Assembly (NCBI GenBank): GCA_002421965.1
Contig: DISN01000005.1
Location: 324-64,323 of the forward strand
Origin: Candidatus Saccharibacteria bacterium UBA6209
GTDB taxonomy: Bacteria; Patescibacteriota; Saccharimonadia; Saccharimonadales; Saccharimonadaceae
Length of the DNA stretch: 64,000 nucleotides
Direction of reading: 5' to 3'
Notes under the pieces: generated by a model
What the model was told of the DNA's origin: nothing
Database searches by the model: none
What the model saw: only the letters and a program-made list of their open reading frames with translations
Part shown: piece by piece, positions 28,503-53,158 of the stretch
How positions within the stretch are numbered: position 1 is the first letter of the stretch
How the letters are laid out: the number at the start of each line of letters is the position of its first letter
Program-made: the position numbers and the translations under genes

Positions 28503-29036
28503 ATGAGTGTACATGAAATACTCTCATCGACATACGATAGGCCTAATGGTCAGTTTGATTACGTCGATGAAGAGGGGAATGTACTTGCTGGATGGATGGA
28601 GGATGAGGTTCATTTCCAAGAGCTATCTGGAGAAGATGAATTGAGTATGCTCGAAGAGCAGATGTTGGCCGAAGAGAAGGGCCAGAATGAGATCAAGGAT
28701 TCTCGAGAGCGTGCTAGGCTTGATGCTGAGGTTGAAAGGCTTGTCGATCAGCGGGGCTTGTCATATGCGATGGCCAGGCTGGCTGTATATGGACAGGTGA
28801 ATGATATGGCAGATATCATTGAGGATCAGCCCGCGAGCACTCGGCGTACACCACCGAGTGCTCCGGGGGATAGTAGGTCTCGTGGCCGACGTCGTGAGCC
28901 AGTGTCGTCTAGCTTGGCATCATTAGAAATCGACAAAGCACAGTCCGACGCGGCGAAGCAGTTGGGGCGTGAACTTACTGATAGAGAGATGATGCAGATT
29001 GCATCTGATGTCGTATCCCGACTGGGTAAGTCCTAA
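28503..29036 (+). CDS. Acidic hypothetical protein
   Basis: TTGACT-N17-TATAAT then 6 nt to ATG 28503. Confidence 0.65.
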   Translation: MSVHEILSSTYDRPNGQFDYVDEEGNVLAGWMEDEVHFQELSGEDELSMLEEQMLAEEKGQNEIKDSRERARLDAEVERLVDQRGLSYAMARLAVYGQVNDMADIIEDQPASTRRTPPSAPGDSRSRGRRREPVSSSLASLEIDKAQSDAAKQLGRELTDREMMQIASDVVSRLGKS

Positions 29037-29070
29037 AAAATACCCCCATCTGTCGATGAGGGGATTTTTT
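29036..29070. terminator. Bidirectional terminator-like hairpin
   Basis: A-tract, CCCCCATC-TGTC-GATGAGGGG, T-tract. Confidence 0.75.
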
Positions 29071-29205
29071 TGGTTGCGGGGGTAGGATTATCGACTAAAG
29101 CCTCCTCCGCTTGCTTGATAGAAAAATACCTTCGGTGCTTTTCTATCTGCGCCACGCTTCGCGAACCTACGACTACGACAAGCGAAGCTTGTCTGTCGTA
29201 TGTTC
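29071..29205 (-). repeat. 3' shadow copy of tRNA-fMet with T-loop insert
   Basis: 19-bp copy of the tRNA 3' end (29071-29089), 73-nt insert, direct T-arm half (29163-29173), inverted T-arm half (29195-29205). Confidence 0.85.
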
Positions 29206-29219
29206 AGCCTCACAAGCCA

Positions 29220-29255
29220 AGAAGAAAGCCCATCCTTGCGGACGGGCATTCTTCT
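29220..29255 (-). terminator. Terminator downstream of tRNA-fMet
   Basis: Minus strand GCCCGTCC-GCAA-GGATGGGC-TTTCTTCT. Confidence 0.75.
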
Positions 29256-29332
29256 TGGTTGCGGGGGTAGGATTTGAACCTACGACCTTTTGGTTATGAG
29301 CCAAACGAGCTACCGGGCTGCTCTACCCCGCG
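29256..29332 (-). tRNA. tRNA-fMet (CAT), initiator
   Basis: 77-nt cloverleaf with encoded CCA; C1:A72 mismatch; CGCGGGG acceptor stem; CTCATAA loop. Confidence 0.95.
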
Positions 29333-29368
29333 ATAAATATTGTTGTGCCTCGGTATTCTTTGCGTCGC

Positions 29369-29438
29369 CATAACCAATGGTTATGAGCTAATTGATCGAA
29401 GGGAGCTACCGGGCTGCTCTACCCCGCGATAAATATTG
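29369..29438 (-). repeat. 5' shadow copy of tRNA-fMet
   Basis: 29403-29438 is identical to 29307-29342 (36 bp); CATAACCA-A-TGGTTATG is an inverted plus direct anticodon-arm fragment. Confidence 0.85.
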
Positions 29439-29513
29439 CGTGACATTACGCCTAAACTCATGACACATGAATTATATTACTACACTTTACGCCTGTTGGC
29501 AATGGTTGCCCGG

Positions 29514-29984
29514 CTATTTTCCGCCAAATAGGAATTTAGCCCATTGTTTGAGGTTGCTCTCGTCTACGACTGCAGTAGCTACGTCGTCGGTAGTATCTTT
29601 GCTCGTAACAGTTGAGGGTACTATTAGCGCATGCTCGCCAGGCATGCCCTTGCCAAGTCGTTCACGCACAGCAAGTTCTTGGTATTCTAGGGTTGTGTAG
29701 AATTTGCCCTCTAGCTGCAGGTTATCTACTCGTAGCTTTTCCAGCTCAACCTGTCGACGCTTGGCATCAACCGACTGCTGTAGTTCGTAGTTTTGCTGCA
29801 TAACCTCTATAGAGCTCCATGTCCAGCTAAAGGCAATCAGTAGAGCACAGGCAATGACGACATTGTTGACCGTCAAATAATCCCGATGGAGTCGATAAAA
29901 AAGGCGTTTTGACTGAGTTTGGATTTTGTCGAGCATGGTGTTTGTTGTGTGGTTATCTACTGCTATTTTATCATAAAAACTCAT
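29514..29984 (-). CDS. Septum formation initiator (FtsB/DivIC-like) protein
   Basis: One TM, coiled coil, ELAVRERLGKGMPGE resembles the E-x-x-AR-x-x-LG-x-x-x-PGE motif; true start may be ATG 29936. Confidence 0.75.
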   Translation of the reverse strand: MSFYDKIAVDNHTTNTMLDKIQTQSKRLFYRLHRDYLTVNNVVIACALLIAFSWTWSSIEVMQQNYELQQSVDAKRRQVELEKLRVDNLQLEGKFYTTLEYQELAVRERLGKGMPGEHALIVPSTVTSKDTTDDVATAVVDESNLKQWAKFLFGGK

Positions 29985-30007
29985 GGTTGTAACGGGCGAC
30001 AGTAGGC

Positions 30008-30044
30008 ACGCTATATCTGGTGTACATACGCTACATATAGCGTA
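30008..30044. repeat. Palindromic intergenic repeat, copy 2
   Basis: ACGCTATATCT (30008-30018) and TACGCTACATATAGCGTA (30027-30044), as at 14127-14158. Confidence 0.75.
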
Positions 30045-30107
30045 GCCCCGTAGTTAGCAAAGAGTCCTGACAAATAAAATCGACGGAGATTCCGCCGAAA
30101 ATATAAG

Positions 30108-30242
30108 CTTGGTGGGGGTGGCTGGGATTGGCGTAGCCGAACGAAAATACCTGAAAGCTTGCTTTCGGGTATTAAGGAGGCGGAGGAGCGAAGCGATACA
30201 ATAGCGACAGGATGTCTGAAAGACAGCCGTAGTCGCTGGTTC
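30108..30242 (-). repeat. 3' shadow copy of tRNA-Ile2 with T-loop insert
   Basis: 23-bp copy (30108-30130 = 30292-30314), 68-nt insert, AGCGAC direct fragment, inverted T-arm GTCGCTGGTTC (30232-30242). Confidence 0.85.
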
Positions 30243-30293
30243 TGGAGGTCTATATATGTTTGGTGGCCACAGAGTGACTAGAAAATAAATTCT

Positions 30294-30369
30294 TGGTGGG
30301 GGTGGCTGGGATTGAACCAGCGACCAACAGGTTATGAGCCCGCTGCTCTGACCGCTGAGCTACACCCCC
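30294..30369 (-). tRNA. tRNA-CAT, most likely Ile2 (lysidine-modified)
   Basis: 76-nt cloverleaf with CCA; paired G1-C72; variable loop/T-arm resemble Ile2 tRNAs; tilS is nearby. Ile2 versus Met identity is inferred. Confidence 0.88.
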
Positions 30370-30400
30370 ATCAGAGGCAATTATACCCTAAATGACGAAA

Positions 30401-31774
30401 TTATAGAAGCTTGCCGGCGGCAATTCTAATAGTTTCTGACCAAGATGTGAATTCGTGTGGGGTCGAGAATAAATCTTCGGCGCTTAGTCCATGGCGGATG
30501 GCGATAGCAAGTTCGTGGATCATCTCGCTAGCATTTGGTGCGACAATCGCCGCTCCGAGTAGAGTTCCTTTTTTGTCGGATATCAATTTGACCATGCCAA
30601 TCCTGTCGTCGGTTATGTTGCTGCGAGGGGCGATGGTTATGGGCACGACTGCTCGATTTATCTTGAGGTCTCGGCGTATGCAGTCGTCCTCGGATAGGCC
30701 AACACGGGCAATTTCCGGCACCGATCGGATAACTTGCAGTGGCATATGCTTGTCAATCACTGAAAACTTAGTGTGCAATAGGTTGTGCGCCGCTACTCGG
30801 CTGTGCATTAGAATCTCATGAGTCGCAGCCCCTGGGTGTACGCAAGATCCTGCCGCAAAGATGTGCTTAGAAGAAGTCTGAAGGCTGGCGTTTACCTTGA
30901 TACCCTGGGAGTTGTAGGCGACCCCGGCGTTTTCAAGGCCGATATCGGTGGCTGGTGCTCGGCGGTCGGCGATCATTAGCGCGTCAACCTTGATAGTACG
31001 CTCAACTCCAGCTCGAACAAAGGTAATTCGTCGGTAGATACCTTCTTTTTGGACGGCTACAATTTTAGTGTTTGGCATGATAGTCATACCGCGTTGCTTG
31101 GTGAGCTGGCTGCCGATCATCTCGGATACGTCTTCGTCTTGATCTGGCATAATACGAGTTGCTGAATCAGCCAAGTAGACTTTTGTCCCAAAAATCGACA
31201 TCAGGTTAGCAACTTCAATAGCCTCCGGAGTGGAGCCGATAATAAATAGCGTCTTGGGTGGGCGAGTGAGGGTTAATGTATCTTTAGGCGTAAAGTATGG
31301 AGTTTCGGCAATTCCTGGAATGTCTGGAATCTCCCATGTTGTGCCAGTTGCAATTAAGAATTTGCGTGCAGATAGGTGGCGTCGATTGATGCTAATTTCG
31401 TTAGGGCTTAAGAAATGAGCAGTACCGTTAAAAGTGCTAATTGACTGCTTCTCGTAGTAACGGCGATTGCCGGCGGCACCGGTGCGTTTTACGACGGTGT
31501 CGCGCCAGAGAAGAATTGATGGGTAATTATAGCCAATTGCTGCAGTGCGCAATCCAAAGTTGGCGGCTTTTTTGGCGTTGTCATAGGTATTGGCGACATT
31601 TATCATTGCGCCGAGTGGGACTTCGCCCCAGTTTGGAGATTCGCCGCCAAATTCATCTTGTTCGATGATGGCGACTTTTTTGCCGGCCCGTGCGGCCATG
31701 GACGCAGCTGGACTACCGCCAGCCCCGCTACCGATGATGATTATGTCATAGTCAAATGTTGGTTTTTGTGCCAT
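30401..31774 (-). CDS. Class I pyridine nucleotide-disulfide oxidoreductase homologue, degenerate
   Basis: GSGAGG FAD motif, LIATG, interface domain; redox CxxxxC replaced by SPNWGE. Confidence 0.85.
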   Translation of the reverse strand: MAQKPTFDYDIIIIGSGAGGSPAASMAARAGKKVAIIEQDEFGGESPNWGEVPLGAMINVANTYDNAKKAANFGLRTAAIGYNYPSILLWRDTVVKRTGAAGNRRYYEKQSISTFNGTAHFLSPNEISINRRHLSARKFLIATGTTWEIPDIPGIAETPYFTPKDTLTLTRPPKTLFIIGSTPEAIEVANLMSIFGTKVYLADSATRIMPDQDEDVSEMIGSQLTKQRGMTIMPNTKIVAVQKEGIYRRITFVRAGVERTIKVDALMIADRRAPATDIGLENAGVAYNSQGIKVNASLQTSSKHIFAAGSCVHPGAATHEILMHSRVAAHNLLHTKFSVIDKHMPLQVIRSVPEIARVGLSEDDCIRRDLKINRAVVPITIAPRSNITDDRIGMVKLISDKKGTLLGAAIVAPNASEMIHELAIAIRHGLSAEDLFSTPHEFTSWSETIRIAAGKLL

Positions 31775-31783
31775 GTCTGCCCC

Positions 31784-32068
31784 CTATATTACCGTTAACT
31801 GTTGTTTGTATAGATATGCCGCCTCTGGATGGTATTTTGTCAGCAGTTTGGCGCCAACTCGTCGGATATCGTCGGTGGTTATTTCTTGTTTGCTCTCGGC
31901 CCATTTGGCTACACCTGCGGCGACACTTTTGGCGATATCTTCGGCTTGGCCATCGGGTGTCTTGAGGCTGCGACAGGTGGCAATCAGACTCTTCTGTAGT
32001 TTGTCGATATCGAAATACTCAGTCTTTTTGGTGTTGTGTGACTTAATAACAATTACTGGCTCGCTCAT
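31784..32068 (-). CDS. Stand-alone ATP-cone domain protein
   Basis: VIKSHNTKKTEYFDIDKLQKSL and ITTDDIRRVG match the ATP-cone pattern. Confidence 0.8.
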   Translation of the reverse strand: MSEPVIVIKSHNTKKTEYFDIDKLQKSLIATCRSLKTPDGQAEDIAKSVAAGVAKWAESKQEITTDDIRRVGAKLLTKYHPEAAYLYKQQLTVI

Positions 32069-32799
32069 TAGAACACCCCGTACACGCTAATACCAAGCAG
32101 ACGATCGACGAACAGATATGCTGCTAGAATAATTAGGCTGCCGCCAGCAATGAACTGGATAAACCGCTTGTGCTTCTCACGCCATTTTTGAATTTTTGCT
32201 ACACTATGGCCGCCACCAACAAGGGTAAATACTACCAATAGCGGCAGGGCAGATACGATGATATAGATGATTAGCCCAGAGAGCTGCCACCAGACGGTCG
32301 GCAGGGTGACAATTGCGAGAGCTGCGGCGATCATTGGACCGATAATAAATAGCAGTTCGGCAAAAACACCAGTAAGTCCCAGTCCAAAGGCTTCGGCTGA
32401 GTTTTTGGTTTGCTTGGTACGAGTATTTAGATATCTGGCAAAGTTTCGTGGTAGCCATAGCGAGGTGCCGCCACCTCGTCGGTAGTAAAATGCCCAAGTG
32501 GCTATTCCGAGACCGATCATTAATCCACTGGCAATTGCCGCAACAAGTTGCTCGGAGCTTGTCGAGAAATTGATTTTGAGTATCAAGAGGTAAGATAGGG
32601 AGGCAAGCAACAATGCGGTTGCAACGATAGACCCGTTGATAAAGCTTCCCATGAGCCGGAGGACTTTTCTGTGTGCGGTTTTGCGGCCAAGCGAATGTCC
32701 GCTAAGCATAGTCAGTACACTTACGCTAAGCTGAAAACTTGCATGGATAATTGCTGCAAATGTGATAATGGCGAAAGATGAGACAATAACAGGGGTCAT
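32068..32799 (-). CDS. Polytopic membrane hypothetical protein
   Basis: About six TM segments; translationally coupled to the ATP-cone gene. Confidence 0.75.
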   Translation of the reverse strand: MTPVIVSSFAIITFAAIIHASFQLSVSVLTMLSGHSLGRKTAHRKVLRLMGSFINGSIVATALLLASLSYLLILKINFSTSSEQLVAAIASGLMIGLGIATWAFYYRRGGGTSLWLPRNFARYLNTRTKQTKNSAEAFGLGLTGVFAELLFIIGPMIAAALAIVTLPTVWWQLSGLIIYIIVSALPLLVVFTLVGGGHSVAKIQKWREKHKRFIQFIAGGSLIILAAYLFVDRLLGISVYGVF

Positions 32800-32892
32800 G
32801 TTTATTTATAATTTCCTGTCTATAGTGTACCATAAGCAGGATAATTGAGCAAAAATAAACCATCTATTTTTGGGCTCTGCTCAGGGTGTTTT

Positions 32893-33441
32893 TTAGCGAT
32901 TTATTTCCCATAGCTCATCAATCCAGCGATAGCCCTCGTGGGTAAGTCCGGCGTCGTCTAGACCAAAGCCCACTAGCCAGCTATCGCCGGCGTCAAAGCA
33001 GTAGTAGTCTGCCTCGGATTGGCGTTCGGGGACTGTTTTGGTGGCAAAAACTGCTAACTTGACGTCGGCAGCACCACGATCCTCGATGACTTTTTTGATG
33101 AAGTCTGAAGTGATGCCTTGGTCAATGAAGTCATCTAGGATAATGACCTGGCGACCCTCAATTTTGGTGTTTGGTGCAACATCGGTCACAATGACAGGCT
33201 GTTTGGCAGTGTGATCCTCGCCATAGGTGCTGACAATCATGTATTCGAGCTCTGGGTGGTAGTCTTGTTTGACCTTAGTCAGGGCAAACATTAGGCGGCT
33301 AGCAAAAGGTCCAGCACCGCGGAGTAGAGCGATAAATAGCGGTGGCTTATCTGGGTAATCACGAATAATCTCTTGGGCTAGCTGGTCGACCAGCTGATTT
33401 ATTTGTTCACTTGAGGCTAATTTTGTGTATCGTTCTAACAT
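32893..33441 (-). CDS. hpt: Hypoxanthine/purine phosphoribosyltransferase
   Basis: LLRGA, IILDDFIDQGIT PRPP loop, VGFGLD motifs. Confidence 0.85.
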   Translation of the reverse strand: MLERYTKLASSEQINQLVDQLAQEIIRDYPDKPPLFIALLRGAGPFASRLMFALTKVKQDYHPELEYMIVSTYGEDHTAKQPVIVTDVAPNTKIEGRQVIILDDFIDQGITSDFIKKVIEDRGAADVKLAVFATKTVPERQSEADYYCFDAGDSWLVGFGLDDAGLTHEGYRWIDELWEINR

Positions 33442-33508
33442 TTAGCTAGTATAGCGAATGACTGGGTGCTGGCAAAGTGCGGGCTATATGACTGGTCATC
33501 TTGTGCTT

Positions 33509-33624
33509 GTAGCACCGAAAAGGATTGGCGTAGTGCCGCGCAGAAAAGAAAGCACCCTTTGGGGTATTTTTTTAAGCAAACGGAGGAGCGAAGCGATACT
33601 CGGGACCTCAAGGCTCACAAGTTC
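33509..33624 (-). repeat. 3' shadow copy of tRNA-Met with T-loop insert
   Basis: 18/19 match to the tRNA 3' end (33509-33527), 71-nt insert, GACCTCA direct fragment, inverted T-arm TCACAAGTTC (33615-33624). Confidence 0.85.
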
Positions 33625-33675
33625 TAAATATATTATCAAAAGAAAAACAGCCACCAATAAGTGACTGTCTTTCTT

Positions 33676-33752
33676 TGGTAGCACCGACAAGGATTGAACT
33701 TGTGACCTCAGGCTTATGAGTCCTGCGCTCTAACCAGCTGAGCTACGGTGCC
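33676..33752 (-). tRNA. tRNA-Met (CAT), most likely elongator
   Basis: 77-nt cloverleaf with CCA; G1:U72 pair; CTCATAA loop. Confidence 0.88.
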
Positions 33753-33796
33753 ATATATAGTGTTTTGTGAAAGGTGCCTGGCTATCGCTTTGATGA

Positions 33797-33872
33797 CAGC
33801 TGGTTGGAGCTTCTGCGCTATTATCTCGCTCAGGGCTGTCCAGCTAATCTACGGTGCCATATATAGTGTTTT
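33797..33872 (-). repeat. 5' shadow copy of tRNA-Met
   Basis: 33849-33872 is identical to 33743-33766 (24 bp); inverted D-arm CAGCTGGTTGGAGC at 33797-33810. Confidence 0.82.
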
Positions 33873-33934
33873 ATGAAAAGTACACATGTATCATGCATAC
33901 CGAGAAGCATTGTAGCAGATTTTTATAAGCTTTT

Positions 33935-34513
33935 CTAGAGGCGACTCTTGCTATGCTCCATACAATAGCGTAGCACTGCTGGTAGGTCCGGATCGTACCA
34001 TCCATTGAGCCTTATGGTGGACGTGGAATCTTTGTTGTGGGGTGCGTCAAAGACTACATGCCGCCAAGTCGTTTCTCCTGAGGTCTTGACCTCCGGTCTG
34101 TCATCAATCAGGGCGATCCCGTCGTATAGTTCTTTTTTGCTGTCAATAACGGCGCTTTTCATTGCCTCTCGCCCCAGGTGTTCTTCAATCCATTTCAGCT
34201 TTTCCTCTTTGCACCACTCGTTGGTGTGTAGTGGGGAGGAGCAGATTCTGGGCTCGTAGCCCAGGTCTTTAATTTTGTCCCAACCCTCAATAGCGCCATC
34301 AACTGGTGGCAGGTTACGGAAGAAGTTCTGCGATGCATGAAGTTTATTTATGACATCAGTATAGTTGGCCTCTGGGTAATCATCCCGGTAGTAGAAGTTG
34401 TTTCGCTCTCGAATAGGTATCTCTAGAGACTCTAAGTGGGCCTGTGTGGCGCCATCAAAATCAGCCAGCACGCCATCCATATCAACTAGGACAATGGGGT
34501 TTTCTCCGTTCAT
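33935..34513 (-). CDS. 5'(3')-deoxyribonucleotidase (NT5C, HAD family)
   Basis: DMDGVLADF, ICSSP, LIDDRP motifs; start set at ATG 34513 (TATAAT + 6 nt). Confidence 0.88.
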   Translation of the reverse strand: MNGENPIVLVDMDGVLADFDGATQAHLESLEIPIRERNNFYYRDDYPEANYTDVINKLHASQNFFRNLPPVDGAIEGWDKIKDLGYEPRICSSPLHTNEWCKEEKLKWIEEHLGREAMKSAVIDSKKELYDGIALIDDRPEVKTSGETTWRHVVFDAPHNKDSTSTIRLNGWYDPDLPAVLRYCMEHSKSRL

Positions 34514-34571
34514 GGGCGTATTATAGCACCTATCTTGCCTAAGTGTTATAATATATCCACCACACCACACA

Positions 34572-34713
34572 CCCTGACGTGTCTTGAACCGCGTAAAGCG
34601 TCCCTGGTGAATGGTTATTCATATCGTCTTCGGCTGAGCAGGTGAACGAAACGACACTAGCGTCGGACGGGCGAACAATCGACAAATCGTTTCTCTAAAA
34701 TAATTTTTGGAGA
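34572..34713 (+). ncRNA. Candidate structured cis-regulatory leader RNA, no family assigned
   Basis: Nested pairings found by eye, cUUCGg tetraloop, SD-sequestering hairpin; extended -10 TGTTATAAT at 34544-34552. Confidence 0.5.
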
Positions 34714-34989
34714 TTGTTTACTGTGAATAACGACATCTTATTAGACGAAAGAATTGAAGTAATAGCGGTTTTTGGCTCAGGCAATTCGCCCTGTCGACCG
34801 GTTAAATTCCGCCGCAAAAGTGGCAGGGAAGTGGTCATTAGCGAGATTGGCCTGGGGTTCCCGCTACCGCAAGGCTCTAGGATGATTCATGTGTTTGACG
34901 TAACAGACGGGCAGGCGGATTATCGGTTGGAATTTGATGCTACAACACTGACCTGGAAGCTGGTGAGAGAGGCGGATCACAGTGTCTAA
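34714..34989 (+). CDS. Small beta-rich protein coupled to a Y-family polymerase (candidate accessory subunit)
   Basis: Overlaps the polymerase start by 8 nt; GGAGA SD suits the in-frame GTG at 34723. Confidence 0.75.
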   Translation: MFTVNNDILLDERIEVIAVFGSGNSPCRPVKFRRKSGREVVISEIGLGFPLPQGSRMIHVFDVTDGQADYRLEFDATTLTWKLVREADHSV

Positions 34990-36205
34990 TATCAATACCG
35001 CTCGACCGATGATCATGCACATCGACCTCAACAGCTGTTTTGCGACAATTGAGCAGCAATCTCGGCCACTGTTACGTGGTCGGCCGGTGGCGATTGTGAA
35101 TCGTGCGACTGAACACACGGCAATTGTTACGGCCAGTTATGAGGCCAAGCAGCAGGGAATAGGGGTAGGGATGAAGCTGGCGACTGCCCGCCTACTCTGC
35201 CCTGCCCTTGTTGCGCTAGAAAGTGACCCGGTAAAATACCGGTTTGTTTACCGAAAACTTATGGAAATTTTACAGGATTATTCGCCATATGTGCGGATGA
35301 AAAGTATCGATGAAGGTTTGATTGATTTTGCTCAAAGTTCATTAGAAATTCGCCAGAGAGAACTGGCTGACATTGGGCGGGAGATCAAGCAGCGGCTTAG
35401 GGGTGAAATTGGTAATTATATGCGTTGCAACATTGGCATTGGCACTAACCGCTTTTTGGCTAAAACTGCTGCTGGGCTAAACAAGCCAGACGGTTTGACC
35501 GAGATCACGCATAAAAACTTGCGAGAGGTCTATCGTAGGCTTGGGCTTGAGGATTTGACTGGCATCGCCCATGGTTACGGCAAGCGGCTTCGAGAAGTCG
35601 GTATTACTACCCCACTAGAGTTTCTGGATGCAGATGAGCTGACGCTGGAGAAGCAAGTATTTCATGGCAAGCCAGGACGCGACTGGTACCAGCGACTACG
35701 TGGCTGGGAGGTCGACGCGATTGATTCTACTCTGCAAAGCGTTGGTCGGCAGTTTGTGCTCGATGAGCGAAATCTTGGCTATGACGAGGTTCTGCGACGG
35801 TTTCATGGGCTATGCGAGGATGTGGCAGCTAAGCTTCGGCACCAAAGTGTCTGGGCTAGGACGGTTAGGATATACGTTAAGTCCCACGGCAAATACTGGC
35901 AGTCGTTGCACCATGAAGGCCGAGCGTTTCATGATGAGTCGACAATATTTACGGCTGTTGAGAAAATGCTCAGAACTGCCCCGTTGCCAGCAATCGAGAT
36001 TGGCGTAACTTGTACAGACATAGTGTCTGAGCCGGATTCTCAGGCCGAGCTATTTAGTAACGAGGAGTATGTCGAAAATATAACTCAGGCGATTGATAAA
36101 ATAAATTTGTCTTGGGGTGATCATACGGTTCATTCGGCGGATACGTTGGGCCTAGCGAATCGGATGAAGCGCAAGGTACCGTTCGGGAGTACGAGGTATT
36201 TATAA
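34982..36205 (+). CDS. dinB: Y-family DNA polymerase (DinB/UmuC/PolY-like)
   Basis: HIDLNSCFA, SYEAK, SIDEG catalytic motifs; QAELF clamp motif; C-terminal AIDKINLSWG. Confidence 0.92.
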   Translation: MSNINTARPMIMHIDLNSCFATIEQQSRPLLRGRPVAIVNRATEHTAIVTASYEAKQQGIGVGMKLATARLLCPALVALESDPVKYRFVYRKLMEILQDYSPYVRMKSIDEGLIDFAQSSLEIRQRELADIGREIKQRLRGEIGNYMRCNIGIGTNRFLAKTAAGLNKPDGLTEITHKNLREVYRRLGLEDLTGIAHGYGKRLREVGITTPLEFLDADELTLEKQVFHGKPGRDWYQRLRGWEVDAIDSTLQSVGRQFVLDERNLGYDEVLRRFHGLCEDVAAKLRHQSVWARTVRIYVKSHGKYWQSLHHEGRAFHDESTIFTAVEKMLRTAPLPAIEIGVTCTDIVSEPDSQAELFSNEEYVENITQAIDKINLSWGDHTVHSADTLGLANRMKRKVPFGSTRYL

Positions 36206-36343
36206 TTATGCCTGGAGAATTGCGTCAATATCAGAGTCCTCGCCGTTGAGCTGAGCAAGTCTTGCCGCTAGCCTTCCAAGATTGAACTGCTCAATACGGG
36301 TGTTTACTTCTGGTGAAGTTGGTAATGTTTCTTGGCTTGTCAT
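36206..36343 (-). CDS. 45-aa small ORF absent from the ORF track
   Basis: MTSQETLPTSPEVNTRIEQFNLGRLAARLAQLNGEDSDIDAILQA; AAGGA SD; TTGCTT-N17-TACAAT promoter. Confidence 0.6.
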   Translation of the reverse strand: MTSQETLPTSPEVNTRIEQFNLGRLAARLAQLNGEDSDIDAILQA

Positions 36344-36635
36344 TTTTTGATCCTTTTTGTTTTTAATTTAACCAATAATTTCATTGTAGCACAAAATTGA
36401 CAAAAAAGCAATACCTTTTGCAAATAAAATAGGTATTTGCGCTATGACGGACAATTCTGTAATTATGGCTAGTGACTTATTGCAGGTTTACAACCTGCCG
36501 TTTATGGCATAGGGATATATTTTCACAACTACTACGGTAGCAAGCTCTACTAAAACAGTTACGAAGGCTCTTTTCCACTACGTCAGGGAATATTTGTGTT
36601 GATTTAGCTGATCATTCGATTGCTATAATGGGACT

Positions 36636-37469: not shown

Positions 37470-37530
37470 AAAGTGCTAAAATTATAAGATAGTGTATTAG
37501 TAACAAAGTGAAAGGATAGTGGATTAGTTT

Positions 37531-45181: not shown

Positions 45182-45372
45182 ACCTCTTGACGCTAATAGC
45201 ATCTAGAAAATCAATTCCGGGTGGGGATGCTGCTTCTTGAGGTGATATTTTAAATGATTTTTTTGCTATTAGATGACCTTCTTACTGCAGTATCGACGAA
45301 CATATTTCGCCCTACAGTGACTCTGGCATTTTGTGACACATCGCCAGTATTTGTTATGAAATAAATAGATTA

Positions 45373-45399
45373 TTAGCACTCGCTTGACATGAGTGCTAA
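45373..45399. promoter_or_regulatory. CIRCE operator 1 upstream of dnaK
   Basis: TTAGCACTC-N9-GAGTGCTAA (perfect consensus). Confidence 0.95.
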
Positions 45400-45419
45400 T
45401 TTTATATACACTAAAAGTA

Positions 45420-45446
45420 TTGGCACTCGCAGCTAAAGAGTGCTAA
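45420..45446. promoter_or_regulatory. CIRCE operator 2 upstream of dnaK
   Basis: TTGGCACTC-N9-GAGTGCTAA. Confidence 0.93.
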
Positions 45447-45491
45447 AATATATACAAGAAATATGAACGTTTAATGAAAGGGGATATATCC

Positions 45492-47396
45492 ATGGGAAAG
45501 ATTATCGGAATTGACCTTGGTACAACTAACTCTGCTTTCGCCTACATGGTAGCGGGTAAGCCAGAGGTAATTGCTAACGCCGAGGGCAATCGAACGACAC
45601 CTAGTGTCGTCGCAGTAAATAAAAGCGGTGAACGCCTGGTTGGTCAGGTGGCACAGCGTCAGCGAGTTACTAACGCTAAGAACACAATTTACGGCGTTAA
45701 GCGACTAATCGGTCGCAAATTTGAGGACAAAGAGGTTCAAAAAGACATCGATATCATGCCGTTTAAGATCGTTAAGAAAAACGGTGGTGTTGCAGTAGAA
45801 ATGGGTGGCAAAGAGTACACTCCAGAGGAAGTCTCGGCAATGATTCTGTCAAAGATCAAGGCAGATGCCGAAGCGTTTCTCGGCGAGAAGGTGACCGAGG
45901 CTGTTATTACAGTCCCTGCTTACTTTGACGACTCACAGCGCCAGGCGACCAAAGACGCGGGTAAGATTGCTGGACTTGAGGTTAAGCGAATTATTAACGA
46001 GCCAACTGCCGCTGCACTAGCTTACGGTCTAGATAACGCCAAAGAGGAAAAGATTGCTGTATTCGACCTTGGTGGTGGTACATTTGATGTCTCTATCCTG
46101 GAGCTGGGCGACGGTGTCTTTGAGGTTAAATCAACAAACGGTGACACGCATCTAGGAGGTGAAGACTTCGATAATGTTATCGTTAATTACTTTATCGATG
46201 ATTTCAAGAAAAAAGAAGGCATCGACCTTAAGAAAGATAACGCTGCTATGCAGCGACTTAAGGACGAGGCTGAGAAGGCCAAGAAGGAGCTATCAAGCAC
46301 TAGCGAATACGAAGTGAACATCCCATTTATTACCGCTGACGCTGATGGCCCTAAGCATTTTGAATTAAAATTGAGCCGTGCGAAGCTTGAGGAGCTGGTA
46401 TCTGATCTGATCGATCGACTAGCTGGTCCTGTTGAGAAGGCCCTGAAGGATGCTAAGTTAAGCGCCAAAGATATCGATGAAGTTGTTTTGGTAGGTGGAA
46501 TGACCCGTATGCCAGCGGTTGTCGACAAGGTTAGGTCGATATTTGGCAAAGACCCGATGCAGGGTGTTAACCCAGATGAGGTTGTGGCAGTTGGAGCTGC
46601 AATCCAGGGTGGTGTGCTGGCAGGTGACGTCAAGGACGTGCTGCTACTCGACGTAACCCCGTTGACTCTAGGTATCGAGACGGCTGGCGGTGTTCGTACG
46701 GCAATGATTGATCGCAATACTACTGTGCCGACTTCGAAGTCTCAGGTATTCTCAACTTATGCTGACAATCAGCCACAGGTTGAGATTCACGTTCTGCAGG
46801 GTGAGCGCGAGATGGCGGCCGACAATAAGAGCCTGGGTACTTTCATACTTGATGGAATTGCTCCAGCGCCTCGCGGCGTGCCGCAAATCGAGGTTACATT
46901 TAGCCTGGATGCAAATGGTATCCTTAACGTGACCGCCAAGGACAAGGGTACTGGTAAAGAGAACTCAGTAACTATCCAGGATAGCGGCAACATGTCCAAG
47001 GAAGATATTGAAAAGGCTCAAAAAGAGGCAGAACTTCATGCTGACGATGACAAGAAGAAGCGTGAGGCTGCAGAGTCACGCAATACACTCGAAAACGCTA
47101 TCTACCAGGCAGAGAAAATGCCAAGTGAGTATAAAGACAAGATCTCTGATGAAGATAAGAAGACTATCGAAGACGCTGTTGTTGCTGCTAAGAAGATCAA
47201 GGATGACGACAAGTCCGACAAAGATGATCTAGAAAAGGCAACCAAGGAGTTGACGGATACAATTATGCCAATTGGCGCTAAGTTGTACGAAGAAGCTTCA
47301 AAGGACGAAGCCAAATCAGACGATGACAGCAAAAAGTCTAGGAAAGACAAAAAATCAGACGAGGCTGTTGAAGGTGAAGTAGTCGAAGATAAGTAG
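45492..47396 (+). CDS. dnaK: Chaperone DnaK
   Basis: [23 protein letters not shown] motifs; start set at MGKIIG. Confidence 0.99.
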
Positions 47397-47408
47397 GCCT
47401 AGTTCTCA

Positions 47409-47443
47409 AAAAATAACTCGTCCTAATCGGGCGAGTTATTTTT
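47409..47443 (+). terminator. Terminator after dnaK
   Basis: AAAAATAACTCGTCC-TAATC-GGGCGAGTTATTTTT. Confidence 0.88.
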
Positions 47444-47444
47444 A

Positions 47445-47471
47445 TTAGCACTCTTGCGCGCAGAGTGCTAG
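47445..47471. promoter_or_regulatory. CIRCE operator upstream of dnaJ
   Basis: TTAGCACTC-N9-GAGTGCTAG. Confidence 0.9.
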
Positions 47472-47492
47472 CTTGCTATAATAAGTACATAT

Positions 47493-48593
47493 ATGGCACA
47501 GCGTGATTACTATGAAGTTCTGGGGGTATCAAAAACTGCCTCCGAAGATGAGATTAAAAAAGCCTTCCGTAAGGGTGCGGTTAAATATCACCCAGATAAA
47601 GAAGGCGGTGATGAGGCAAAGTTTAAGGAAATAAATGAGGCCTACGAGGTCCTTAAAGACAAGCAAAAACGTCAACGCTACGATCAGTTTGGTCATGCCG
47701 GCGTTGGTGGAGCGACTGGCGGTGCTCAGGGCAATCCGTTTGAGGGATTCGATTTTGGCGGCCAAGGCATGCAATTTGACTTTGGCGGCGGCCTAGGTGA
47801 TATTTTTGGTCAGTTTTTTGGTGGTGCTCAGGGTGCACAACAGGGTCCACGGCGTGGTCGTGATGTTGAAACGAGCATTACGCTTACCTTCGAAGAAGCT
47901 GTATTCGGCGTAGAAAAGAAAATCTCCCTCAACTTGGATGACGAGTGTGACCACTGTCATGGCACTGGTGCCGAACCTGGCTATAGCCTAAAGACTTGTC
48001 CGGACTGTAAAGGTGCCGGTCAGCAAACCCGTGTGATGAACTCGATATTTGGTCAGATCCAGCAGGCCGTAACCTGTCAAACTTGTCGCGGTAAGGGCAA
48101 GATTCCAGAGAAAGAATGTTCGATTTGTGGCGGCAAGGGCACAACACGCCAAGCTCGCGAGATAAAGATCAAGATCCCAGCAGGCATAGACGACGGTGCC
48201 ACCATTCGCCTCCGTGAGCATGGTGAAGCGGTTCAAAATGGCTCAAAGGGCGACCTCTATGTCCATATCCGTGTCAAGGCACACAAGAAATTCACCAGAG
48301 AGGGTAATATTATTCTATCTGTGGAGCACATCTCTATGGTCGACGCGGCCCTCGGTACTGAAATTGATGTCGATACGGTGGACGGCAAGGTTCGTATGAA
48401 AATTCCAGCCGGCACCCAAAACGGCACCGACTTTAAGCTGTCTGGCCATGGTGTGCCGAATTTTCGTAACGAATCTCGCGGCCCACATATTGTCGGTATC
48501 GTTGTAGATATCCCGACAAAACTCTCCAAAAGGCAAAAAGAGATACTGGAAGAGTTCAAGAAGAGCGGTAAAAAGGGTATATTTGGCATCTAA
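47493..48593 (+). CDS. dnaJ: Chaperone DnaJ
   Basis: HPD motif, G/F-rich region, four CxxCxGxG repeats. Confidence 0.98.
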
Positions 48594-48641
48594 GCCGTGA
48601 TTAAACTTGCTTTTATGTCTAAAGTATGTTATAATCAAATC

Positions 48642-50138
48642 ATGATTCAGACGACTGAACAAATAAATACATCCAGGCCCCTAGAATATGACATCAGTCC
48701 TCGAAGTCTCCCAGAGGCGGGGTTTCAGTCGTATGAGATGCTAAAAAGTAACACCAGCAGCCAGAAGGAGTCTTTCATCTCTGGTATGGTGCGTAATCCT
48801 GAGCCAACTTATCCGTACCTCGAATCTCTCGCTCAGATGGATGCCGGGATACTTCGTCTTTATGACGCTATAGAGACTGTAAAGAATCTTGAGCCAGACG
48901 AGGAAAAGGCATCAATTGTTGCGGCTTCTCTTGAGTTTCGCATAGCGGAGATGGAGTACGTCAAACTACTTGGAAGGCTTGATTTTGCCGTAAAAGAGAG
49001 GCTACCCGAAGATAAGGTGAGGGAGTTGGCTGATGAGGTGCGTACTGTTGGTGAGCAGCTATATGGCATACCTAATCCCGAGATCCGCGATGCGGCGGTT
49101 GCTGAGGTTTGGTCGCAGCTCGACGGGAAGCAATTGTCTTCATCGGCCCAGAGACTATATGACGATTTACATAACGGCTTTTCGTGGAATGGTAGTGAAA
49201 TTGCACCGTTATCTCGACCCGAGTCAGCCAAGAGCCTGCCCGACTTCAACCATCCGTCGCTCGCATGGGCGGGTGAGATCATCCTCGAAGATAGCTCGGA
49301 GCTTGAGGCTTATTTCAACGAATGGTGGGCGGACAAGGTGGCAGAGTATGGCGAAGACTACGCAGCATATCCTGAGGATATAGTCGAAGCATACAGGGGT
49401 GCATTTAAGCTGCTCGATCCCGAGGGTAGGTCTGGAGTTGATGTAATTCTCGATCCCGAGGCATCGGCTCTTTCCTGGGAGTCTTCGCTTATGGCGATTA
49501 AGGTTGGTAAAAAGCGTGCACCAATTTGTAGCGCCGCAACATTATTTCAGAAATACCTACATGAGGGCAAGGGGCACGGTGGCCGCGCCATAAGTGGTCT
49601 GAGCAGCGGCCTGTCAGTTCTAGGTACGGGACTCTACACTAACACAGTTAGGCCGGATTATTTAACCTTTGAAGAGGGGCTGTGTACTACTATCGAAGAG
49701 GTGGTTAGCGAGTCTGATCCTCAGTGGGATGGCGCTAAGCTTGGTCATTACATTAATATTTCCCTTGTTGCCGATGGTGCTGATTTTCGTGCGACATTTG
49801 AAACTGCGTGGCGCTATCGACTGCTAATGAAGCTGAAGGACGGACAGGACGTGACGGATGACATGGTTGCGAAAGAGCAGGGAGTCGCCTATACTGCCCT
49901 TGTTCGTATATTCCGTGGCACACCAATGAATATGGGCGAGAGTTACCCGGATATACCACCGGTGACGTTTAATAAAGACTTAGCGTACTTGAACGGCCGC
50001 ATACTAGCCATGAATCATATTGCCAAACTGCACGAAACAGAAGATAGCGCTGGGCTAATGAGGTTGTTTGTAGCAAAGTATGATCCGACAGTTCCTGAGC
50101 AGCAAGAAATTGTTGATAAATACTGCTCAGCTGTCTAG
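48642..50138 (+). CDS. DUF1704/QEGLA-motif (MATCAP-like) metallopeptidase
   Basis: HEGKGH (HExxxH), EEGL, KDLAYLNG motifs; TTGCTT-N17-TATAAT + 6 nt to ATG 48642. Confidence 0.75.
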   Translation: MIQTTEQINTSRPLEYDISPRSLPEAGFQSYEMLKSNTSSQKESFISGMVRNPEPTYPYLESLAQMDAGILRLYDAIETVKNLEPDEEKASIVAASLEFRIAEMEYVKLLGRLDFAVKERLPEDKVRELADEVRTVGEQLYGIPNPEIRDAAVAEVWSQLDGKQLSSSAQRLYDDLHNGFSWNGSEIAPLSRPESAKSLPDFNHPSLAWAGEIILEDSSELEAYFNEWWADKVAEYGEDYAAYPEDIVEAYRGAFKLLDPEGRSGVDVILDPEASALSWESSLMAIKVGKKRAPICSAATLFQKYLHEGKGHGGRAISGLSSGLSVLGTGLYTNTVRPDYLTFEEGLCTTIEEVVSESDPQWDGAKLGHYINISLVADGADFRATFETAWRYRLLMKLKDGQDVTDDMVAKEQGVAYTALVRIFRGTPMNMGESYPDIPPVTFNKDLAYLNGRILAMNHIAKLHETEDSAGLMRLFVAKYDPTVPEQQEIVDKYCSAV

Positions 50139-50194
50139 GGTAAAGTGGGCGACTAGGGCTGGACATTTCAGCTAAGTTATGCTATTATGAAATA

Positions 50195-50725
50195 ATGAGT
50201 GAAAAAAGCAACAGTCTAATAACGGTTGGTCGTACTGAGAGGATTGATATCCCTGTAGAGGGGATAAAAAATGTACCTGCTAAGATTGATACTGGGGCTG
50301 ATAGTTCGTCAATTTGGGCATCAGAGTTGAGTATTGATGACGACAATGTGCTGTCGTTTTGCTTGTTTGCTAAGGGCTCGCCGTATTATACTGGTAAGAG
50401 GCATGAAGCGCGCGGCTACACTGCCATCGGGGTTCGTAGCGCTCATGGTACGCTCCAGGTGCGCTATAAGATCCAGATGGTGGTACGATTGGGTGGTAGG
50501 CGAGTTAGGGCGACATTTACTTTGTCTGATCGCTCACAGAACACCTATCCAGTATTGATTGGCTGCAGGCTATTGAGCAAAAAATTCTTGGTAGATGTCT
50601 CTAAGGGGTCTAGATTAGCCACTAATAAACCCATACACGGCCTACGCGAAGAGCTGAACCAAGATCCAAAGGCATTTTTTGAAAAATATCACAGTAATAA
50701 TCACCGAGGAGATGTAGATCTATGA
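50195..50725 (+). CDS. RimK-associated retropepsin-like protease (RimB-like)
   Basis: AKIDTGADSSS, LSDRSQNTYPVLIGCRLL; overlaps the rimK start. Confidence 0.87.
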   Translation: MSEKSNSLITVGRTERIDIPVEGIKNVPAKIDTGADSSSIWASELSIDDDNVLSFCLFAKGSPYYTGKRHEARGYTAIGVRSAHGTLQVRYKIQMVVRLGGRRVRATFTLSDRSQNTYPVLIGCRLLSKKFLVDVSKGSRLATNKPIHGLREELNQDPKAFFEKYHSNNHRGDVDL

Positions 50726-51633
50726 AAATCGCAATTCTATCGAACGGCAACGCCAACTACTCTACTAAACGCCTCGCTGAGGTGGCAAAATCCCGTGGCC
50801 ACGAGGTTAAGGTTATCAAATACAAGAACGCTTACGCGTCAATCGAACAAAACAACCCTAACCTAAGCTATCGCGGTAAGGAGCTTGGGCATTTTGATGC
50901 TATTATCCCTCGTATTGCTAGCAACATGACCCGCTACGGTACGGCTATGCTTAGGCAGATGGAGATGCAGGGCATGTATACGGTTTCTAGCTCGATTGCG
51001 ATTAGTCGAACACGAGACAAGCTGCGAAGCATGCAGCTATTGTCAAAGGCCGGCGTGGCAATTCCAAAGACGGTGTTTAGTCGTAATACTGCCGATATCG
51101 ATGATCTTATAGAGATGGCCGGTGGCGTACCGGTAATTATTAAGCTAGCCAGAGGTACTCACGGTAACGGCGTAGTTTTGGCCGAGACAAAAAAGGCCGC
51201 TAAGTCTGTGCTCCAGGCATTTTATCTGCAGAACGAAGACGGAACTAACATTTTGGTTCAGGAGTTTATCGAGGAATCGGCCGGAACTGATATTCGTGCT
51301 TTTGTTGTCGGCGGACGAGTGGTGGCAAGCATGAAGCGTCAGAGTCTTGATGACGATTTTCGGTCCAATCTACATAAGGGCGGCGAGGGTGCTGTCGTCA
51401 AGCTTACTGAAGAAGAGCGCAAGATGGCGGTCAGGGCTGCCCGTGCTATGGGCCTGAGCGTAGCTGGCGTAGATATGATGCGTTCGGCAAGGGGTCCACT
51501 GGTACTTGAGGTGAATGCTAGTCCTGGGTTTGGTATTGAAAAGATCACTAAGCGTGATGTTGCGACGCCAATTATTGAATACATTGAGCAAAACGCTAAG
51601 CGTCGCCCAAAAAAAGACAAGATCGGCGCCTAG
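50722..51633 (+). CDS. rimK: RimK-family alpha-L-glutamate ligase (ATP-grasp)
   Basis: RDKLRSMQLL, GTHGNGV, QEFIEE, DIRAFVVG, FRSNLHKGG, EVNASPG motifs. Confidence 0.93.
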   Translation: MKIAILSNGNANYSTKRLAEVAKSRGHEVKVIKYKNAYASIEQNNPNLSYRGKELGHFDAIIPRIASNMTRYGTAMLRQMEMQGMYTVSSSIAISRTRDKLRSMQLLSKAGVAIPKTVFSRNTADIDDLIEMAGGVPVIIKLARGTHGNGVVLAETKKAAKSVLQAFYLQNEDGTNILVQEFIEESAGTDIRAFVVGGRVVASMKRQSLDDDFRSNLHKGGEGAVVKLTEEERKMAVRAARAMGLSVAGVDMMRSARGPLVLEVNASPGFGIEKITKRDVATPIIEYIEQNAKRRPKKDKIGA

Positions 51634-51672
51634 CCGGCTGCTGTCTGTCACTCCTCGTGATATGATATAGAT

Positions 51673-52158
51673 ATGGACAAGCAGGACAGGAATCTGCAGA
51701 AGAAAGCTCCATGGATGATTGCTGTCATTGTGGCCGTGCTGGTTCTTGTGGCATCGGCCGTTGGGTGGTATTGGCTGCCTGACGATCAGATCGTTGAGCT
51801 TGGCGGCACGACTTATAGGGCCGAGGTAGTCGACAGCCCTAAAACTAGGGCTAGGGGTCTGTCTGGCAGGAAGTCTCTGGATGAGAATCGAGCGATGCTG
51901 TTTGAGTTTAATGATAGTGATTTTCATAGTTTTTGGATGAAGGATATGCAGTTTTCGATTGATATTATCTGGATGGACAAGTTTCGGCAAGTTGTCCATG
52001 TAGAGCGGGGATTGCAGCCTGATAAACCTCCTCATAAGTCGTATCGACCTGACAAGAAAGCTAAGTATGTACTGGAAGTAGCGGCTGGTCAGGCGGATAA
52101 TGTAACAGTTGGGGATAAGATGACAGTAAAAAAGGAGGGTGCTGGATGGAAGTTATAG
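51673..52158 (+). CDS. DUF192 family protein
   Basis: RARGLSGR, MLFEF, FWMKDM, IDIIW, YVLEV motifs; N-terminal TM. Confidence 0.88.
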   Translation: MDKQDRNLQKKAPWMIAVIVAVLVLVASAVGWYWLPDDQIVELGGTTYRAEVVDSPKTRARGLSGRKSLDENRAMLFEFNDSDFHSFWMKDMQFSIDIIWMDKFRQVVHVERGLQPDKPPHKSYRPDKKAKYVLEVAAGQADNVTVGDKMTVKKEGAGWKL

Positions 52159-52631
52159 TTATGTTCGTTGCAATAGTTCTGGCGGTTTTTGTCGGTGCTT
52201 TTGTGTCGGGTCGGCGATTTGGTGTGCTGTCACTGAGTCTAGCTGCCGGATCGATTTTGTCGGGATTTTGGGCTACTGGGCTGGCGGTGCTAGTTGAGGC
52301 ATTCGGAGTAGGTGGCGGTAAGTTGCCGCCAGAGGTGGTGGCAACAGTTGTGCTGCTAGTCGCGCCGGCTGCGATACTTCTGTTTAGCGGCCCTAAGTAC
52401 AGTAAAAAGTTTGGCCGAGTGGTGTCGGCGCTAGCCATTGGTGTGCTGACGGCGGCGTTTTTGGTCAAGCCCCTTGGTGGCCTGATGTCGCTCAGCGGCG
52501 GCGCCCTTGAGGTTTATCGATTTTTGGCGGATTATTGGCAGTACGTGGTGGGCGTTGGGTTGATACTTGGAGTGTTGGATTTGTTTATGCTGCATACCAA
52601 AAATCTGCTCAAGTCCGATAAAAAACATTGA
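52146..52631 (+). CDS. Small polytopic membrane protein
   Basis: About five hydrophobic segments; overlaps the DUF192 gene. Confidence 0.7.
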   Translation: MEVIVMFVAIVLAVFVGAFVSGRRFGVLSLSLAAGSILSGFWATGLAVLVEAFGVGGGKLPPEVVATVVLLVAPAAILLFSGPKYSKKFGRVVSALAIGVLTAAFLVKPLGGLMSLSGGALEVYRFLADYWQYVVGVGLILGVLDLFMLHTKNLLKSDKKH

Positions 52632-52718
52632 CATAAGCACTAATCTGTGATAAGATGAGGGAGGTAGTTTATAGACTACCGATTGTTTGGCGTGTGTCAA
52701 GCAAGTGAACATTATTTG

Positions 52719-52791
52719 CAATTTGGGTCCGTAGCTCAGCTGCTGTCCGAGATGCTTGTCGCCGAGTGAAATCATTAAGCACCAGGTGCTC
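52719..52791 (+). repeat. 5' shadow copy of tRNA-Lys
   Basis: 52719-52742 is identical to 52839-52862 (24 bp); AGCACC-A-GGTGCT(C) direct plus inverted fragment at 52778-52791. Confidence 0.85.
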
Positions 52792-52844
52792 AAGCCGAAA
52801 TCACTGACAGTAGTTGAGCCGAGATTCATGTAAATTACCAATTT

Positions 52845-52921
52845 GGGTCCGTAGCTCAGCTGGTTAGAGCACCTGCCTTTTAAGCAGGGTGTCATGGGTT
52901 CAAGCCCCATCGGACCCTCCA
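52845..52921 (+). tRNA. tRNA-Lys (TTT)
   Basis: 77-nt cloverleaf, CTTTTAA loop, encoded CCA, U73 discriminator. Confidence 0.95.
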
Positions 52922-52972
52922 AAGAAAAAACCTCACCTTTTGGTGGGGATTTTTCTTTAGCATTGGTTGTTG

Positions 52973-53123
52973 GCTTGAACGCCGTTGACACCCGTAGGTG
53001 GAATGGGTGAGGACTGCCGGTGGCAGTCCGCAAGGAAACCTTCCGATGCGGTCTGTGATCGCAATCGTGAAGTTTCGGGGTCGCGGGACGTGACCAAGCC
53101 CCATCGGACCCTCCAAAGAAAAA
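52973..53123 (+). repeat. 3' shadow copy of tRNA-Lys
   Basis: Inverted T-arm GCTTGAAC...TGACACCC (52973-52993), hairpin-rich insert, 53095-53123 identical to 52901-52929 (29 bp). Confidence 0.87.
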
Positions 53124-53158
53124 GACCCATCACAGTATATGGGTCTTTTTCTTTGGAG
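53111..53158. terminator. 20-bp perfect hairpin/terminator
   Basis: CTCCAAAGAAAAAGACCCAT-CACAGTAT-ATGGGTCTTTTTCTTTGGAG. Confidence 0.8.

Follow-up and report, generated by a model that had tools for sequence, protein, structure and literature searches.

The window analysed here, a stretch of 64,000 nucleotides from contig DISN01000005.1 (positions 324 to 64,323, forward strand) of Candidatus Saccharibacteria bacterium UBA6209 (GCA_002421965.1), contains four tRNA genes according to ARAGORN and Rfam: three tRNA(CAU) genes, all on the minus strand, and one tRNA-Lys(UUU) gene on the plus strand. Behind each of them lies a short composite unit made up of pieces of the respective tRNA gene and an insert, and these units are the subject of this work. 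Each locus was read on the sense strand of its tRNA and the tRNAs were aligned to their flanks. In this direction the parts follow in a constant order, namely the tRNA, a terminator or AT-rich spacer, an inverse arm that is antisense to approximately positions 46–62 of the tRNA, a short sense piece that pairs with this arm, an insert of 70–98 nt and finally a 19–21-nt copy of the tRNA that begins in the T-loop and ends with CCA. A preliminary description made from the letters of the DNA had proposed this arrangement, and it was recovered at all four tRNAs with the coordinates proposed there.

The first locus shows all parts on the minus strand. tRNA-Met1 (CAU; 29256–29332) is an intact host gene and is directly followed by terminator 1 (29217–29255), which is new in comparison to congeners, where terminator 2 directly trails the tRNA. 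Next come the inverse arm TGAACATACGAC (29195–29206), antisense to tRNA positions 47–58 with 11/12 matches, and the direct arm GTCGTAGGTTC (29163–29173; tRNA positions 46–56), which pairs with it. The 73-nt insert core (29090–29162) is of type A as defined below, stands in forward orientation and gives the best match of the type A model R1 (64.7 bits). It is followed by a 19-nt copy of the tRNA 3' end (29071–29089; positions 59–77) and by terminator 2 (29035–29070). This is the ancestral Met1 terminator, whose homologue stands directly after Met1 in the congeners G336 and G008.

The two other tRNA(CAU) loci, likewise on the minus strand, carry cores of type A that are reversed relative to the tRNA, yet their arms and 3' copies lie on the tRNA sense strand. 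tRNA-Met2 (CAU; 30294–30369) is followed by the inverse arm GAACCAGCGAC (30232–30242; antisense to positions 46–56), a 70-nt core (30130–30199), a 21-nt 3'-end copy (30110–30130) and a terminator at 30080–30098. tRNA-Met3 (CAU; 33676–33752), termed Ile2 in the preliminary description, is accompanied by the inverse arm GAACTTGTGA (33615–33624), a 73-nt core (33527–33599) and a decayed 3'-end copy (33509–33527) with one mismatch in 19 aligned nt and a change of CCA to CAA just past it. On the plus strand, tRNA-Lys (UUU; 52845–52921) precedes an inverse arm (52972–52993) in which GGCTTGAAC is antisense to positions 54–62, a 98-nt core of type B (52997–53094) ending with GGGTCGCGGGACGTGAC, a 21-nt 3'-end copy (53095–53115) and a terminator-like 20-bp hairpin (53116–53156). 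Intrinsic terminators were identified downstream of tRNA-Met1 and its copy, of the Met2 copy and of tRNA-Lys. Besides the terminator at 30080–30098, the interval between the Met2 3' copy and an ftsB-like gene (29956–30109) contains a promoter-like site (29965–29993) with a TG-extended −10 element. Both are absent in congeners, and the ftsB-like gene lies there within approximately 25 nt of tRNA-Met2.

With the exception of the decayed Met3 copy, the direct 3' copies in the window are exact 19–21-mers, far past chance expectation. The inverse arms are modest if taken singly, as their observed scores were reached by 4 to 81 of 2000 shuffles; all four start 50–52 nt past the tRNA and map to tRNA positions 46–62. 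Folding is much better than in shuffled sequences for three of the four units (z=−5.2, −3.1 and −2.3), but not for the decayed one at Met3. The preliminary description had named assembly artefacts among the findings that would refute it. Since contigs of four independent metagenomes (2013–2024) span the Met1 and Met2 units, the window units are not such an artefact.

Anatomy and distribution of the units

The source genome (code G000) is a 704-kb assembly of a member of the Saccharibacteria in 26 contigs with 39 tRNAs. Units on the 3' side were found at 11 of these, namely Met (three genes), Lys, Ser-tga, Gln-ttg, Gln-ctg, Leu-cag, Asp, Glu-ctc and Glu-ttc. The earlier statement that every tRNA carries the pattern thus holds inside the window (4/4) and fails for the whole genome, where most tRNAs lack it. 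Two 3' units stand behind Gln-ttg and three tandem 108-nt units behind Leu-cag; a further, orphan 3' unit is located on contig C18. Decayed copies occur at Met3, Asp, Glu and on C18. The last Gln-ttg 3' copy (C9:51080–51250) has no terminator and by eye enters what looks like the interior of an ABC-exporter reading frame, a hint of gene truncation or of a rearrangement where the array ends. A PLD-like (PLDc_2) open reading frame (ORF; C18:8463–8978) adjoins the orphan unit, which is of type A.

A 3' unit measures 110–190 nt and comprises its own terminator, the antisense T-arm (often complete), a hairpin top, the sense T-stem 5' strand with TTCG, the core, the last 18–21 nt of the tRNA up to CCA, and a terminator. 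The core, be it of type A, type B or another kind, branches off exactly in the T-loop, and in every unit its 34–98 nt lie between the copied 5' strand and the copied 3' strand of the T-stem. For type A, entry is after TTCG (after G57) and the copy resumes at position 59; for type B, entry is after T54/55 and the copy resumes at C56. Folded as a single strand, the unit forms a rod in which an intact antisense T-arm is set against a sense T-arm from which the core projects sideways. Pairing of the antisense arm begins with the sense T-stem 5' piece and continues, past the core, with the distal 3' copy; an NCCA overhang is left at the 3' end. Among 38 forward type A units, the arm is significant at p≤0.01 in 27 and covers the full T-loop complement in 27; in 22 it extends by 3 nt or more into the complement of the 3' strand of the T-stem, and in approximately nine it reaches the acceptor strand. 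The loop complement within these arms is typically GAGAA, not TCGAA.

The type A core, a covarying hairpin of approximately 75 nt, is common to the three CAU loci and stands forward at the first (Met1) but reversed at the other two. It was searched with R1 in 301 genomes of the order and, separately, with a degenerate pattern in 185,579 species. R1 detected it in 25 of the 301 genomes with 1–12 copies each, the source genome holding most. The pattern yielded 26 matches, 25 of them in metagenome-assembled genomes of Saccharibacteria and one by chance, and 21 further metagenome contigs contained it as well. Type A cores follow at least 15 tRNA species. They are located 50–100 nt past the tRNA end in 24/25 pattern-scan units with a sense-strand tRNA upstream, are oriented forward in 48 cases versus reverse in 9, and form arrays in which some copies are reversed or nested. 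The central hairpin shows compensatory changes at 11 of 13 pairs, a score reached by none of 500 shuffles, together with a fixed G⋅U pair beside a C⋅A mismatch and conserved unpaired motifs. The nearest relatives of a given copy usually stand at a different tRNA. Within the source genome, copies share partial identical tracts, which suggests gene conversion between them.

Type B, present at tRNA-Lys, was also found in six other genomes (G008, G204, G224, G114, G081 and G288), where it occurs in T-loops and on the 5' side. A third core type is present in one of the two G114 units at the tRNA-Gln-ctg locus. The preliminary description had regarded the fragments as specific to each locus and as products of a recurring process. 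Recurrence at tRNA genes was substantiated; the inserts, however, turned out to belong to families, types A and B, that extend across the Saccharimonadales.

Mirror-image units exist on the 5' side of eight tRNAs of the source genome. They consist of a copy of the leader and the 5' part of the tRNA, an insert in the D-loop or the anticodon loop, and a short sense piece with a foldback. At Met1 (29403–29438, minus strand) 10 nt of leader and tRNA positions 1–26 are copied and followed by the foldback GCTCATAACCA/TTGGTTATG; this unit is present in decayed form in G342, G016 and G336. The Met3 5' unit (33840–33872, minus strand) copies the leader and positions 1–19. The one at Lys (52725–52742, plus strand) copies positions 1–18, followed by a 35-nt insert starting with CTGTCCGAG, the start of a further insert family of 5' units, and by an AGCACC/GGTGCT foldback. 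Other 5' units lie at C2:31548–31790, C3:56430–56660 and C20:74010–74270, tandem 5' units were observed at Gln-ctg, Ser-cga and Arg-cct, and the Ser-cga 5' unit carries type A in its D-loop.

Insertion history and search for a mobilising enzyme

A comparison of empty with filled sites, as suggested in the preliminary description, revealed relatives without units at three loci. In G336 and G008, tRNA-Met1 is directly trailed by the terminator that follows the distal copy in the source genome. The Met2 site is empty in five congeners, and in G342 an unrelated gene of approximately 330 aa occupies that spot; the Gln-ttg site is empty in G016. Because congeners have empty sites and the ancestral terminator stands behind the distal copy, these cassettes are insertions. 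Their order of arrival can be read in G008, where a type B unit adjoins tRNA-Gln and, beyond it, a homologue of the source genome's first Gln unit follows, terminator included. The newer unit is proximal and the older one distal, and therefore new units enter at the live tRNA and displace older ones outward. Reversed cores are nested inside older forward remnants, type A is patchy even within one genus, and older copies decay.

One locus with cargo was encountered. On contig C11 of G114 (L045, 5240–14400) a 9-kb block is bracketed by tRNA-Gln-ctg and two units. It encodes a 2044-aa protein, an ABC ATPase with permease and then a C39-peptidase-like ORF; no integrase stands out among its listed ORFs, which were not domain-scanned. 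The genes of this block also abut an orphan unit in G130.

The absence of an integrase and of cargo between the tRNA and the distal copy, noted earlier for the four window loci, was confirmed, and no integrase was found in or beside approximately 100 inspected units. The recombinase search revealed a single PF00589 gene (Xer-like tyrosine recombinase) in each of the four element-rich genomes G000, G079, G217 and G081, and a tyrosine integrase was rejected as the mobiliser on this ground. A Y1_Tnp gene (PF01797) is present in 15/25 type A genomes compared to 67/276 others; no PF01797 match was obtained in G000, the genome richest in type A. HUH proteins of approximately 205 aa resembling REP-associated tyrosine transposases (RAYT; REP, repetitive extragenic palindrome), with the motifs YHVYNRG, HFHLL and YIHLNP, occur in 82 of the 301 genomes of the order. 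Where their genes were inspected (L103–L108; G079, G319, G217 and G296), they are flanked on both sides by a perfect palindrome of their own, ..AAGGnCTGnCCTT.., which is unrelated to the units. Despite the correlation in presence, a Y1/RAYT mobiliser was rejected in view of these palindromes and of the lack of such a gene in G000.

Crude motif scans of the ORFs of G000 gave neither a TnpB-like zinc-ribbon ORF nor a serine-recombinase ORF. Reading the units as guide RNAs, with a scaffold, an 18–21-nt guide and a terminator, was likewise dismissed, as the motif scan of G000 showed no TnpB-like effector and reversed units break the layout. The only reverse transcriptase of the source genome belongs to a diversity-generating retroelement (DGR) at C23:1320–3999, outside the window, with RVT_1 (5.8e-22), the bAvd accessory protein (6e-19) and a pilin-like target that has an N-terminal methylation motif and an FGE-sulfatase/C-type-lectin-like domain. 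Since the differences between tRNAs and their copies are not at adenines, a link between this DGR and the units was rejected. By-eye comparison with the integron attC consensus showed no fit to the hairpin ends. Excision joints were not found in Logan contigs, which are assembled contigs only. Type A had no match in IMG/VR viral contigs (pattern search), the three type B pattern matches there are all chance matches in coding DNA, and BLAST of the units against phage and plasmid collections found nothing; these searches thus gave no full-length parent in phages or plasmids, and the idea was dropped.

Origin and spread of the units

The units leave the tRNA itself unharmed, accumulate at the live gene, carry no recombinase and are structurally constrained. 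We lean towards reading them as divergent RtT-like, mobile, tRNA-programmed cassettes, that is, small, gene-less, folded modules at the ends of tRNA genes that resemble the RtT repeats of Escherichia coli (RF00391; rttR). Such cassettes would be mobile and either selfish or semi-domesticated, and their tRNA-identical ends would restore the gene. Natural transformation with homologous recombination is documented in Saccharibacteria (PMC10633639), and cassettes may move between the genomes of these naturally transformable bacteria by homologous recombination on the tRNA itself. Acquisition in this way would be possible because a full tRNA and an identical 18–21-nt copy bracket each unit. First entry into a new tRNA species would involve a T-loop-specific step supplied in trans, which would also make the antisense arm. 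Judged by E. coli RtT, the units probably share a transcript with the tRNA, from which the enzymes of tRNA processing would excise them.

Several observations weigh against this interpretation. Transcription of the units is unproven, as most of them stand behind an intrinsic terminator and no promoter-like site was seen upstream of them; three metatranscriptomes gave 0–1 reads. The interpretation does not account for the origin of the antisense arm; no enzyme was identified, nor did the search, made in assembled contigs only, reveal an excised or circular form. That type A is highly similar across families could be due to purifying selection instead of mobility. Finally, the kinship with RtT is architectural and homology of the cores is not demonstrated, because the covariance models fail in both directions: RF00391 matched neither the window nor any of seven loci, whether at the gathering threshold or with the cut-off relaxed to E≤5, and Rfam returned tRNA matches only; R2, a covariance model of the units, did not match E. 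coli RtT.

A wider proposal is put forward tentatively, as one that may well turn out wrong. RtT-like cassettes would then be a widespread, unrecognised tRNA-programmed class in which a core is delivered to the T-, D- or anticodon loop and the antisense and sense arms are rewritten from each new host tRNA. This would imply either a templated, guide-like single-strand insertion without a recombinase in cis, or tRNA-specific minihelix-mimic RNAs that take part in the processing or charging of tRNAs or in the stringent response. Arms copied anew from every host tRNA would mean that the ends of tRNA genes are targeted and duplicated in a hitherto unknown way; units that act as RNAs would each mimic the minihelix of a particular tRNA and might serve in quality control of tRNAs or in starvation signalling. 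Both ideas are testable, since Saccharibacteria are genetically transformable (PMC10633639).

Among the alternatives to mobile cassettes, host RNA genes have to be considered first. The units would not be mobile DNA in that case, they would be tRNA-specific regulatory or decoy RNAs that mimic an acceptor/T-stem minihelix with an NCCA end and are matured by RNase P and RNase Z. A role in the stringent response has been proposed for RtT, and the units would perhaps sense or titrate tRNA-binding enzymes in a similar manner. The strong covariation and conserved unpaired motifs are in accordance with functional RNAs, and so are the mostly sense orientation (48 versus 9), the terminator that each unit owns, the outer arm reproducing the T-stem, with pairing of the acceptor too in approximately 9/38 units, and the precedent of RtT itself. 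This explanation is nevertheless unlikely in our view. It is opposed by the patchy occurrence within one genus with empty sites in congeners, by decay at Met3, Asp, Glu and on C18, and by the reverse and nested copies; the terminator between tRNA and unit and the lack of a visible promoter count against it as well.

Arrays built up by serial integration next to the live tRNA, a direct repeat that reaches from the T-loop as far as the 3' end, and the cargo-bearing case in G114 are all features expected of tyrosine-integrase islands or prophages that recombine in the T-loop, and tycheposon-type islands have comparable arrays of partial tRNAs. The units could accordingly be scars or miniature derivatives, comparable to cis-mobilisable elements (CIME), of such islands, with the cores as attP arms. 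We hold this to be improbable. Not one of approximately 100 units has an integrase in it or beside it, the four element-rich genomes have only the Xer-like recombinase, and a core of 34–98 nt splits the would-be crossover site. Moreover, cores are found in either orientation, D-loops and anticodon loops with 5'-restoring copies hold them too, and nothing alike was found in the IMG/VR, phage and plasmid collections.

A third possibility, which appears very doubtful, is that the cores derive from HUH elements (IS200/IS605 or REP-RAYT) in the manner of miniature inverted-repeat or palindrome-associated transposable elements (MITE or PATE), and inserted as single-stranded DNA into loops of pre-existing partial tRNA copies. 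Such elements would fit the imperfect hairpins, whose mismatch is conserved, and the exact entry points specific to each type (behind G57 for type A, behind T54/55 for type B), and the distribution of Y1_Tnp (15/25 versus 67/276) points in the same direction. The richest genome, G000, however, has neither Y1_Tnp nor, in the motif scan, a TnpB-like ORF, and the RAYT-like genes are flanked by unrelated palindromes of their own. No unit without a core was observed, and hence the postulated stage of a pre-existing partial copy was never seen. Chance similarity or an assembly artefact, for which only the modest single scores of the inverse arms could be cited, has practically no probability left and is refuted by the exact 19–21-mers, by the units spanned in four independent samples and by a layout that recurs in dozens of genomes.

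Comparison with known systems

Similar to the units, islands and prophages that integrate into tRNA genes, e.g. tycheposons, restore the tRNA with an element-borne 3' part, flank the insert with a direct repeat of the 3' end, build arrays by serial integration, and have relatives with empty sites in which the ancestral flank is the one found behind the distal repeat. The units differ by the lack of an integrase, a length of 110–190 nt, the antisense arm, the occurrence in both orientations and the 5'-restoring versions; furthermore, they have no contiguous core site at the distal junction and place a structured core inside the crossover region. The earlier view that the inverted arms go beyond simple att duplication was borne out; such duplication does not account for an insert exactly in the T-loop either.

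Integron attC sites and integrative mobile elements exploiting Xer (IMEX) of the CTX type use recombination sites formed from folded single strands, in which the structure is conserved and the sequence variable. As in these systems, a single strand of the unit would fold to mimic a double-stranded target, and no recombinase is carried in the unit. The units are distinguished by the T-arm of tRNA as the target, and no integron integrase or dif-like site is known for them. With REPs and bacterial interspersed mosaic elements (BIME) plus RAYT, and with the PATE of IS200/IS605, they share the character of short, non-coding, imperfect hairpins in multiple copies, and the units would likewise be mobilised in trans. 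REPs, in contrast, have no tRNA-matched arms, the RAYT-like genes of the relatives have their own palindromes, and G000 has no such gene. In the tyrT region of E. coli K-12 (L159, 1101–1125), the best, non-significant match of R2 (E=0.53) is a REP-like sequence, GGTCGGATAAGCGAAGCGCA, that resembles the type A 5' motif TCGGnnnAGCGnAGCGCA.

The closest counterpart in design are the repeats at the E. coli tyrT and tyrV genes. Known as a curiosity from about 1980 on, the tyrT repeats have, as far as we know, no agreed mechanism. The 178-bp tyrV repeat is composed of GGGGAAGGAT (antisense to tRNA-Tyr positions 68–77), GAGAAG, CTTCG-ACC-AAGGTTCGA, a 67-nt insert and AATCCTTCCCCCACCACCA (tRNA positions 67–85), the last of which occurs three times in the E. 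coli repeats. The same closing stem and the motif GAUGAGAAC are contained in the Rfam consensus RF00391. RNAs of the RtT family are reported to be expressed adjoining tRNA genes (PMC4986893).

RtT repeats and units alike stand directly behind a tRNA gene and on its strand, often form tandem copies and end with an approximately 19-nt copy of the host tRNA 3' end including CCA (19, 21, 19 in decayed form and 21 nt in the window). Both contain an arm antisense to the T-arm or its 3' strand, a sense T-stem 5' piece and a structured insert that branches off at the T-loop. The RtT arm GGGGAAGGAT covers the T-stem 3' strand and the acceptor, and is followed by GAGAA, a small hairpin, TTCGA and the insert of approximately 67 nt; the junction motif GAUGAGAA is common to E. 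coli RtT and forward type A units. Differences lie in the host, Saccharibacteria, in the several core families at many tRNA species, in the intrinsic terminator that parts most saccharibacterial units from the tRNA, and in their mirror-image 5' units. The preliminary description had seen in the pattern an undescribed system; given the shared anatomy of the tyrT/tyrV repeats, the design has a precedent, and the units represent a divergent form of something that is known, if unexplained, and are not wholly undescribed. With at least 15 tRNA species, several unrelated cores, insertion polymorphism and 5' versions, an oddity of E. coli becomes a general class that is open to comparative study.

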